Assembly: GCA_028868715.1 (NCBI GenBank) | Contig: JAGWUB010000002.1 | Coordinates: 145,716-209,715 of the forward strand | DNA from: Patescibacteria group bacterium | GTDB taxonomy: Bacteria; Patescibacteriota; Minisyncoccia; Phycocordibacterales; UBA9973 | DNA: 64,000 bases | Direction: 5' to 3' | Shown: piece after piece, positions 59,845-61,375 of the stretch | Layout of the letters: each line of letters opens with the position of its first letter | How positions within the stretch are numbered: position 1 is the first letter of the stretch | Program-made: the position numbers and the translations under genes | Notes under the pieces: model-generated | The model's database searches: none | What the model was told of the DNA's origin: nothing | The model's input: only the letters and a program-made list of their open reading frames with translations

Positions 59845-61375
59845 ATTATTCCACGACCAGCTTCCGCTAGCCGTGCCTTGTTACGACTTAGTCCCTGTCA
59901 CCAAGCTTACCTTAGGCCCTACTTATGTAGAGACTTCGGGTACTCCCGGCTCCCTTGACTTGACGGGCGGTGAGTACAAGACTTGAGAACGTATTCACCG
60001 CGGTTTAGCTGACCCGCGATTACTAGCAATTCCAGCTTCATGGAGTCGAGTTGCAGACTCCAATCCGAACTGAGGCCGCTTTTAAACGATTAGCTCAGAG
60101 TCGCCTCGTCGCTGCGCGTTGTAACGGCCATTGTATTATGTGTGTAGCCCAAGGTATCAAGGGACATGCTGACCTGGCGTCATCCTCTCCTTCCTCCCCC
60201 GACAAAACTTTCAAACTTATTTGAAAACTTTGTCGGAGGCGGTCTCGTGTGACACTTGTAACACACAACGAGGGTTGCGTTCGTTAGCCCACTTAAGGGT
60301 ACAATTCAAACCACGAACTGACGACGGCCATGCATCACCTGTCAACTTGTCTTGCGAGGTCCAATGTTTCTAAAGGATTTCAAGTTGATTTCTAACCTTG
60401 GTAAGGTTCTTCGTTTACCATCGAATTAAACCACATAATCCACTGCTTGTGCAAGTCCCCGTCTATTCCTTTGAGTTTTAGCCTTGCGGCCGTAGTTCCC
60501 AGGCGGATCTCTTAACGCGTTAGCTAAGCCACTCAGAGGGTCGATACTCCGAATAGCGAGAGATCATCGTTTAGGGCGTGGACTACTGGGGTATCTAATC
60601 CCATTCGCTACCCACGCTTTCGTGCTTCAGTGTCAAATATGCGCCAGCGTACTGCCTTCGCTTTTGGTGTTCCCCATGATATCAACGGATTTCACCCCTA
60701 CACCATGAGTTCCGTACGCCTCTCACACTTTCTAGTTTTGCCGTTTCTTTCGCGATTCCCAGGTTGAGCCCGGGGCTTTAACAAAAGACTAACAAAACAA
60801 CCTACGCACCCTTTACGCCCAATAATTCCGGATAACGCTCGAGGCTCTCGTATTACCGCTCCTGCTGGCACGAGATTAGGAGCCTCTTATTCATGAGGTA
60901 CCGTCAATAAACTTCTTCCCTCATAAAAGATCTTTACGCCCCAGAGGGGCTTCATCAATCACGCGGCGTCGCTCCATCAGACTTTCGTCCATTGTGGAAG
61001 ATTCTCGACTGCAGCCACCCGTAGGTGTATGGTCCGTGTCTCAGTACCATCGGTGGGGGTCAGGCTCTCACCTCCCCTAGACGTCATAGCCTTGGTAGTC
61101 CATTACACTACCAACTAGCTGATATCGCACAGGCCTTTCCCGAAGCGTTAAAACTTTACTCTTGCGAGACCATCGTGTATTAGTCTACCTTTCGATAGAT
61201 TATTCACGACTTCGGGGGAAGTTCCTATGTATTACTACCTCGTTCGCCACTAATTTTTTGATATCTTTGACCTTGATGTAATCTCAATCTCTGACGATAA
61301 AAAATCCGTTCGACTTGCATGCCTTATCCACGCCGCCAGCGTTCATCCTGAGCTAGGATCAAACTCTAACTAAAA
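59845..61375 (-). rRNA. rrs: 16S ribosomal RNA (complete, ~1.53 kb, no insertions)
   Basis: Reverse complement of the 5' end AGAGTTTGATCCTAGCTCAGGATGAACGCTGGCGGCG at 61356-61367, the 3' AAGTCGTAACAAGG at about 59870, and the 530, 907 and 1390 conserved regions are all present. Confidence 0.95.

Follow-up and report, generated by a model that had tools for sequence, protein, structure and literature searches.

Few parts of bacterial rRNA are as conserved as the anti-Shine-Dalgarno (anti-SD) sequence at the 3′ end of 16S rRNA, and its outright losses show the minimum that is needed to find a start codon. In the survey of Tsurumaki et al. (2022, RNA 28:1041; PMC9297842) the motif was detected in 48% of Parcubacteria, the lineages without it overlap the group lacking uL1, and Shine-Dalgarno (SD) helices are probably not formed in the anti-SD-less members. 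The subject here is the 16S rRNA gene, together with the gene starts around it, in a 64,000-nucleotide stretch of contig JAGWUB010000002.1, hereafter called the window. The window comes from a Nomurabacteria-like member of the Parcubacteria/Paceibacteria in the Candidate Phyla Radiation (CPR), with a tiny genome, and there is good reason for confidence that this Paceibacteria-like bacterium has a 16S rRNA without the CCUCC core and starts translation without SD pairing. Anti-SD loss is not new, because it was reported for a Parcubacteria subgroup in the survey; the window is one more member and is alike in its CPR 16S 3′ end without CCUCCU. The rplK-rplA region, relevant to uL1, lies outside it. 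The replacement sequence, the pairing of a retained UC with the 16S trailer, the start-region statistics and the leaderless promoter spacing are added here and are not described in the accessible text of that survey.

Three other systems invite comparison. In the Bacteroidia (Flavobacterium johnsoniae; Naeem et al. 2026, PMC13000453) initiation is likewise SD-independent genome-wide, at A-rich and unstructured starts, and the residual roles of the 16S tail lie in rRNA maturation rather than mRNA selection, to which the tail of the window is likened. Bacteroidia, however, keep CCUCC under bS21, bS18 and bS6 and use it for rpsU autoregulation, its ablation harming 16S processing, whereas in the window the very sequence has disappeared; promoters at leaderless spacing, as in the window, do not figure in the Bacteroidia description (PMC13000453). 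None of bS21, bS18 and bS6 is among the proteins of the 64-kb window, which does not conform to the sequestered type, the anti-SD being absent. Leaderless-rich bacteria and archaea such as Mycobacterium tuberculosis retain a canonical anti-SD and use SD on leadered genes. As far as Cortes et al. (2013, as cited in PMC12641261) are reported there, such organisms resemble the window in −10 elements about 6-8 nucleotides (nt) before the start, near-exclusive AUG and no 5′ untranslated region or SD, the leaderless state being a prediction in our case. Unlike that type, the window has no anti-SD, and its promoters are placed within upstream genes that end very close to the next start. Mitochondrial mRNAs have no leader or next to none. 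The 12S rRNA of mammalian mitochondria also lacks an anti-SD (PMC10582724). A mitochondrion is, however, an organelle with a dedicated Era homologue, ERAL1, binding helix 45, whereas most CPR are without Era, and its promoter and processing logic is entirely different.

The CPR/Parcubacteria affiliation is given by a 16S identity of 84-90% to loci of Taylorbacteria (L018), Nomurabacteria (L078, L095), Zambryskibacteria and Paceibacteria, and by the helix-45 signature CACGGNUAGCGGAAGCUGNUCGUG that is common to those relatives. A scan of species-representative genomes with the 16S signature GTACTCACCGCCCGTCA returned 120 loci, mostly CPR plus Campylobacterota, and a metagenome scan defined by the helix-45 type alone returned 120 further contigs; both scans pooled hold 157 unique tails of the window's helix-45 type. 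With the gene next to the 16S as query, two Logan contigs of about 1.8 kb, from runs SRR32006838 and SRR32006839, were recovered that confirm the tail, without genome context. The gene statistics cover the 64-kb window only, a part of the genome, in which 60-66 genes were called, most of them with Pfam support; gene calling in the relatives was crude and took the first ATG of open reading frames (ORFs) of at least 100 amino acids (aa). Several metagenome-assembled genomes titled 'uncultured Candidatus Saccharibacteria' (binchicken, SRP co-assemblies; L008, L012-L014, L043, L046, L062, L069, L077, L113) carry a 16S with Paceibacteria-type helix 45 and tail, and their titles look unreliable.

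The 3′ end of the 16S rRNA gene is made up as follows:
61374-59839, minus strand: full-length 16S rRNA gene of CPR type (Rfam RF00177 SSU_rRNA_bacteria, 1360 bits, model positions 1-1533)
59875-59852, minus strand: helix 45, CACGGCUAGC-GGAA-GCUGGUCGUG (Rfam 3′ alignment)
59851-59839, minus strand: 3′ tail GAAUAAUUCAAUU, in gapless Rfam alignment to AUCACCUCCUUU
59845-59835, minus strand: mini-hairpin UUCA-AUU-UGAA, its 5′ arm the anti-SD remnant and its 3′ arm beyond the Rfam 3′ end, in the trailer (compensatory changes)

After helix 45 the 14 bases read GGAAUAAUUCAAUU where the consensus has GGAUCACCUCCUUU, and the position of CCUCC is taken by AUUCA (59846-59842). The initial annotation had claimed that the tail lacks CCUCC, and both the Rfam alignment that it proposed, here gapless, and an independent assembly bear this out: the same tail and trailer are found in the Logan assembly L002, and the tail is also identical in L078, L038 and several metagenome contigs. 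CCTCC occurs in only 2 of the 157 unique tails of this helix-45 type, and the nearest relatives (Taylorbacteria, Nomurabacteria, Zambryskibacteria, Paceibacteria) share the helix-45 type and are all without CCUCC. A CCUCC-containing 3′ extension was looked for in the tail, in the trailer and at a conserved place in relatives, and none was found; the window trailer of about 220 nt holds no CCUCC up to the terminator, and within the next 300 nt CCTCC was present in 14 of 156 anti-SD-less relatives at scattered positions, compared with 28 for the control motif GGAGG. Helix 45 itself keeps 10 of 10 pairs in 32 relatives, compensatory changes included.

The start regions do not behave as those of an SD-using bacterium. 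Duplex energies of −6 kcal/mol or lower with GAUCACCUCCUUU were reached by 8.3% of 60 window starts and by 8.3% in shuffles. As both anti-SD-less and anti-SD-bearing CPR loci were without SD enrichment, 50 kb of E. coli was added as a positive control, and the same pipeline gave 65% against 33% shuffled with a clear G peak. In the window G is depleted at −12 to −4 (5-14%), and canonical SD-dependent initiation is indicated neither by the tail nor by any SD enrichment at −12 to −5. Pairing with the real tail is no substitute: the mean duplex energy was −1.17 kcal/mol against −1.74 kcal/mol shuffled, and a tail-complementary 5-mer was found in 17 genes where 24.8 ± 3.8 were expected. A de novo k-mer screen of positions −20 to −1 found enrichment only of pieces of the extended −10 element (TGCTA, TGGTAT, TATGCT, GGTATA, TAAAAT). 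With no SD enrichment and with A-rich, unstructured start regions the window conforms to the SD-blind type. The absence of SD motifs, earlier spot-checked at dnaK, clpB, gyrA, secA, rpoA, rpsM, infA, cysS and infB (34950-36482), whose identities were all confirmed with Pfam, holds over the 60 starts scored, where SD pairing is at shuffle level, and widespread SD motifs were sought at the 60-66 window starts with no enrichment found. Parcubacteria loci with the canonical tail GAUCACCUCCUUU (L004, L011, L017, L027, L061 and others) had SD-like pairing in 11.8% against 11.1% shuffled, in a small sample of 119 genes with crude gene calling, and leaderless-type −10 spacing in 11.8% against 2.5%.

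The second regularity lies in the distance between promoter and start codon. With curated starts, a −10 box stands 5-8 nt before the ATG in 23 of 66 genes, while other 4-nt gap bins hold 2-5, and leaderless mRNAs are therefore predicted for these genes. Measured from TAnnnT boxes with 5 or 6 matches out of 6, the distance to the ATG has a sharp peak at 6 nt, and 12 of the 42 extended −10 boxes (TGnTAnnnT, both strands) are followed after 6-8 nt by an ATG that opens a reading frame of 140 codons or more. A naive pipeline gave 28% of window genes and 0% in E. coli. The peak is clade-wide: among 396 genes on 120 metagenome contigs, gaps of 6, 7 and 8 nt were counted 29, 22 and 18 times over a background of about 3-5. 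Several of the promoters fall within the final codons of the gene before, where the two genes are 1-7 nt apart. The start codon is ATG in 65 of 66 genes, under a start rule that favours ATG. The two boxes first reported, near the ATGs at 1480 and about 13071, are real with gaps of 6 and 7 nt, and the prediction of leaderless mRNAs for several promoters turns out stronger than it was put; together with the SD statistics, the spacing supports the SD-independent initiation that had been proposed. Nothing specific on leaderless mRNAs in Parcubacteria or CPR was found in the open-access literature. The following promoters came from the −10 scan, the distance being that from box to ATG:
1465-1482, plus strand: extended −10 TGCTATAAT, 6 nt, ATG 1480 of an AI-2E transporter gene, predicted leaderless
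4745-4727, minus strand: TGGTATACT, 7 nt, ATG of an arginase family gene
9845-9826, minus strand: TGCTACAAT, 8 nt, ATG of a VirD4/TrwB-like gene
13087-13069, minus strand: TGTTAAAAT, 7 nt, ATG 13071 of grpE, directly after a terminator hairpin, predicted leaderless
19868-19851, minus strand: TGGTATAAT, 6 nt, ATG, the promoter within the end of the upstream gene
33340-33323, minus strand: TGGTATAAT, 6 nt, ATG
42857-42839, minus strand: TGTTATAAT, 7 nt, ATG of a T4SS-pilin paralog
45269-45251, minus strand: TGTTACAAT, 7 nt, ATG of a methyltransferase gene
48607-48589, minus strand: TGCTAGAAT, 7 nt, second ATG of an ORF with metallo-beta-lactamase fold
57558-57540, minus strand: TGCTAGAAT, 7 nt, second ATG of secA
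59129-59112, minus strand: TGTTACAAT, 6 nt, ATG of a D-Ala-D-Ala-ligase-like gene
63580-63563, minus strand: TGGTATAAT, 6 nt, ATG of a VIT family gene

The window also has six tandem T4SS_pilin (PF18895) paralogs at 40483-43427 on the minus strand, and VirD4/TrwB-like and HerA-like ATPases at 6463-9828.

The other starts are 78% AT with a folding energy of −2.69 against −4.68 kcal/mol (p = 1e-8), and 26 of 53 pairs of same-strand neighbours are at most 10 nt apart; AU-rich, weakly folded starts and close neighbours fit loading on unstructured RNA or reinitiation. The start context is Kozak-like, with T in 62% and G in 3% at −1 and A in 50-60% at −3, −4, −6, −8, −9 and −11. The window encodes an S1-domain protein of only 360 aa (48721-49803), a short IF2 of 510 aa without a long N-terminal region (34950-36482) and IF1.

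The tail was further found to pair with the trailer. Of the 155 tails that have no CCTCC, 117 retain the U and C corresponding to the centre of CCUCC. Counting pairs in gapless MAFFT columns gave a muddled result because the loops vary between 3 and 5 nt and put the 3′ arms out of register, and the count was therefore replaced by a search anchored on the invariant C, allowing a loop of 3-6 nt and pairing with the bases just downstream, with a shuffle null and an arm-swap null in which arms were exchanged between different types. A Watson-Crick stem of at least 3 bp was present in 92% of the 117 tails (22% with the 3′ part shuffled, 47% with arms swapped) and one of at least 4 bp in 59% (9% under either null), statistics that take no account of phylogeny; in the genome-only set 32 of 32 tails had at least 3 bp. 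The arms covary as UUCA/UGAA (window), CUCA/UGAG, UCCA/UGGA, UUCC/GGAA, GUC/GAC, UUUC/GAAA and UUCU/AGAA, and intermediates exist, such as GAUCACUUCC-AUGU-GGAA. CPR with a canonical anti-SD have CUCC...GGAG or a longer stem (at least 4 bp) in 26 of 27 cases against 14% shuffled, and their variant tails covary as well (UUCC/GGAA, CUCU/AGAG, GCCU/AGGC). Since the pairing is present in CPR with and without the anti-SD, the hairpin would be a CPR feature that outlived the anti-SD. Among the Campylobacterota tails 0 of 15 reach 4 bp, and Gracilibacteria-type tails (GACUAUCUCCUUAUA) have no such hairpin. In Peribacteria and Peregrinibacteria (L006, L019, L023, L033, L074, L075, L094) the variant anti-SD cores UCUCC and CUUCC were seen with the matching trailer changes GGGAG and GGGAA. 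A tail:trailer pairing of this kind was not found in the searchable open-access literature. The conserved UC:trailer pairing and the clade-wide leaderless-type spacing would thus be what the present sequences add to the Parcubacteria survey.

The initial annotation had confined SD-like sequences to a higher-GC SPFH operon and one micro-ORF. The motifs in the operon are there, but the small ORFs with such motifs number two and the operon is only mildly higher in GC:
39085-39098, plus strand: GAGGAG (39085-39090), with a gap of 5 nt to the ATG of the SPFH/Band-7 gene, a leadered gene; duplex energy −8.7 kcal/mol
39947-39961, plus strand: GGGAGGG (39947-39953), upstream of the start codon ATG of the second SPFH operon gene; duplex energy −11.3 kcal/mol
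59575-59482, minus strand: hydrophobic micro-ORF of 30 aa with GGAGG before ATG 59575 (ORF and motif)
59400-59172, minus strand: membrane ORF of 75 aa with GAGGU before ATG 59400, called as a gene in L002

An SD-like 5-mer with ATG at a true start was found in 2 of 64 genes plus the two small ORFs, which is close to chance. The GC contents of the two operon genes, 0.426 and 0.444, compare with 0.384 ± 0.029 (z = 1.4 and 2.1), another native-looking gene being higher, and point only faintly to a foreign origin of the operon. For the 75-aa ORF a leader of some 20 nt is predicted from the promoter TGCTAAAAT at 59430. Both small ORFs sit between the 16S terminator and the ddl-like gene, and no other small ORF with a good SD-like motif was seen.

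The window 16S is a working unit and not a fragment. It forms a stand-alone transcription unit (59623-61602) with its own promoter, leader-trailer helix and terminator, and neither a 23S nor a tRNA follows it downstream:
61602-61573, minus strand: candidate 16S promoter, TTGACA-18-TATACT (11 of 12 matches)
61423-61397, minus strand: leader strand of the leader-trailer processing helix, 27 nt, complementary to 59682-59656
59766-59740, minus strand: trailer hairpin AUUGUGUAG-CUCAAUUGA-CUACACAAU, with homologous stems in L038, L078 and L175
59682-59656, minus strand: trailer strand of the processing helix, complementary to 61397-61423
59654-59623, both strands: bidirectional terminator-like hairpin at the end of the 16S unit

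A leader-trailer helix is the usual processing helix bracketing a 16S. The AGAACGAAACAAAACA motif of its trailer strand is also found in L078 and L038, and the trailer layout of conserved hairpin, then AGAACGAAACAAAACA, then terminator is common to L078, L038 and L175. The gene also contains an inserted hairpin at 60193-60239 on the minus strand, AU-rich and about 45 nt long, in the helix 40 region immediately before GGAGGAAGG; it is absent from several relatives or different in them, and BLAST alignments are broken at 16S positions 1137-1177. In many loci, with both tail types, a GAGUCG(A/G)U-like motif is found 20-80 nt 3′ of the 16S end (for example L032, L054, L066, L083 and L099; 59770-59776 in the window). 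Elsewhere, four tRNAs are clustered directly after rbfA within 36815-37216, and a fifth lies 5 nt upstream of an acylphosphatase gene (29875-29957).

A mechanism can be proposed on these grounds. About a third of the genes would have their own extended −10 promoter 6-8 nt before the AUG, often within the end of the preceding gene, so placed that transcription would begin at or beside the A of the AUG and the ribosome would load via the 5′-terminal AUG of a leaderless mRNA. The remaining starts, many of them 1-7 nt past an upstream stop, may be served by structure- and S1-dependent loading or by termination-reinitiation. The anti-SD probably decayed by AT-biased drift once constraints had relaxed, and selection would have kept the trailer pairing (the central UC of the old anti-SD, UUCA/UGAA) while CCUCC eroded. 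Parcubacteria with a canonical anti-SD are without SD enrichment, and SD disuse therefore seems older than the loss of the anti-SD. The hairpin may serve 16S 3′-end maturation. The sequence recognised by Era is GAUCACCUCC, and Era has been lost from most CPR (PMC10582724); in Flavobacterium, with ribosomes that take no notice of SD, rpsU translation and 16S maturation still depend on the anti-SD (PMC13000453).

Several observations weigh against this account. Four of the 23 leaderless calls are on starts that were moved with the help of the −10 box, as compared with the 28% of the naive pipeline, and the points where transcription begins, like the 3′ end of the mature 16S, are predictions. A few genes do have good SD-like motifs (the SPFH operon and the two small ORFs), and the metagenome gene set had a slight excess of SD-like pairing, 21% against 13%. 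By itself the mini-hairpin of the window is not stable (minimum free energy 0 kcal/mol), 38 of the clade's tails are without UC and show at most a pairing of U-run with A-run that is easy in AU-rich sequence, and covariation was only partly visible in the gapless MAFFT columns. The genome was covered over 64 kb only, and a second, canonical rrn copy could lie elsewhere.

Of the other explanations, the one that fares best keeps the hairpin in the mature 16S, where it would mimic an SD:anti-SD helix in cis in the platform pocket and leave the ribosome SD-blind, also in CCUCC-bearing CPR. The maintenance of the pairing by compensatory change across CPR and the absence of SD use in CPR with a canonical anti-SD would agree with it, as would h26, which contacts the SD helix and which Tsurumaki et al. 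(PMC9297842) describe as unusually conserved in Parcubacteria for reasons unknown; SD-blindness through protein sequestration of the anti-SD in Bacteroidia (PMC13000453) offers a parallel. The Rfam 3′ end falls in the loop, however, and positional homology thus puts the 3′ arm in the trailer, while a stem of 3-5 bp is unstable alone in AU-rich versions. No CPR ribosome structure was found in the open-access literature, and this explanation is considered improbable.

That the tail is not that of a working ribosome, through an assembly artefact, decay of the 16S to a pseudogene or a second canonical rrn copy supplying the anti-SD, is very unlikely, even though the analysis covers only 64 kb, no 23S is linked to the 16S and strong SD-like motifs precede a few genes. 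One rrn copy is usual in CPR genomes. The tail recurs identically in an independent assembly, and 155 of 157 related tails are without CCTCC. The gene is matched by the Rfam model from one end to the other with helix 45 intact, has its own promoter, processing helix and terminator, and has the same stand-alone layout in relatives; the chance level of SD motifs speaks against a canonical copy in use.

Slightly less credible still is a new pairing code in which tail and mRNAs co-evolved, with a non-canonical SD such as UUGAAUUAUU pairing with AAUAAUUCAA. The GAAUAAUUCAAUUUGAA tail is indeed conserved across genera (window, L038, L058, L069, L078, L109 and many metagenome contigs), but upstream regions pair worse with the real tail than shuffles do, tail-complementary 5-mers are under-represented, and the only enriched upstream k-mers are promoter −10 elements; the code was rejected.

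An insertion after helix 45 displacing the true anti-SD downstream, for example to GAACUUCCUAAAA about 125 nt into the trailer, is the least probable of all and was rejected: CPR rRNA genes often carry insertions, as with the extra hairpin at 60193-60239, and CUUCC stands in the window trailer with CCUCC at the homologous place in L175, but the tail aligns to the model without a gap, the trailer segment is not conserved (AGAACUUAAAAU in L078, nothing similar in L038) and lies inside the region bracketed by the processing helix, and the CCTCC of other trailers (the 14 of 156 given above) is scattered in offset and rarer than GGAGG.

To the survey of Parcubacteria the window adds a case at the level of genes, in which neither SD nor a substitute motif is seen and promoters stand at leaderless spacing. 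In such genomes starts will be misplaced by gene callers with SD scoring, and four starts were corrected here; constructs for expressing CPR genes, or for CPR hosts, should be designed without dependence on SD. The conserved tail:trailer pairing is a testable handle on 16S 3′-end maturation in bacteria without Era. Put together, and only tentatively, Paceibacteria may have lost the anti-SD while a pairing partner was kept CPR-wide (CUCC/GGAG, then UUCC/GGAA, then UUCA/UGAA), as an Era-independent signal for 16S 3′-maturation or an in-cis mimic of the SD helix, along with a layout of many self-promoted leaderless genes, even 1-7 nt apart. If this is true, leaderless initiation would be a main route of translation in a large bacterial radiation.

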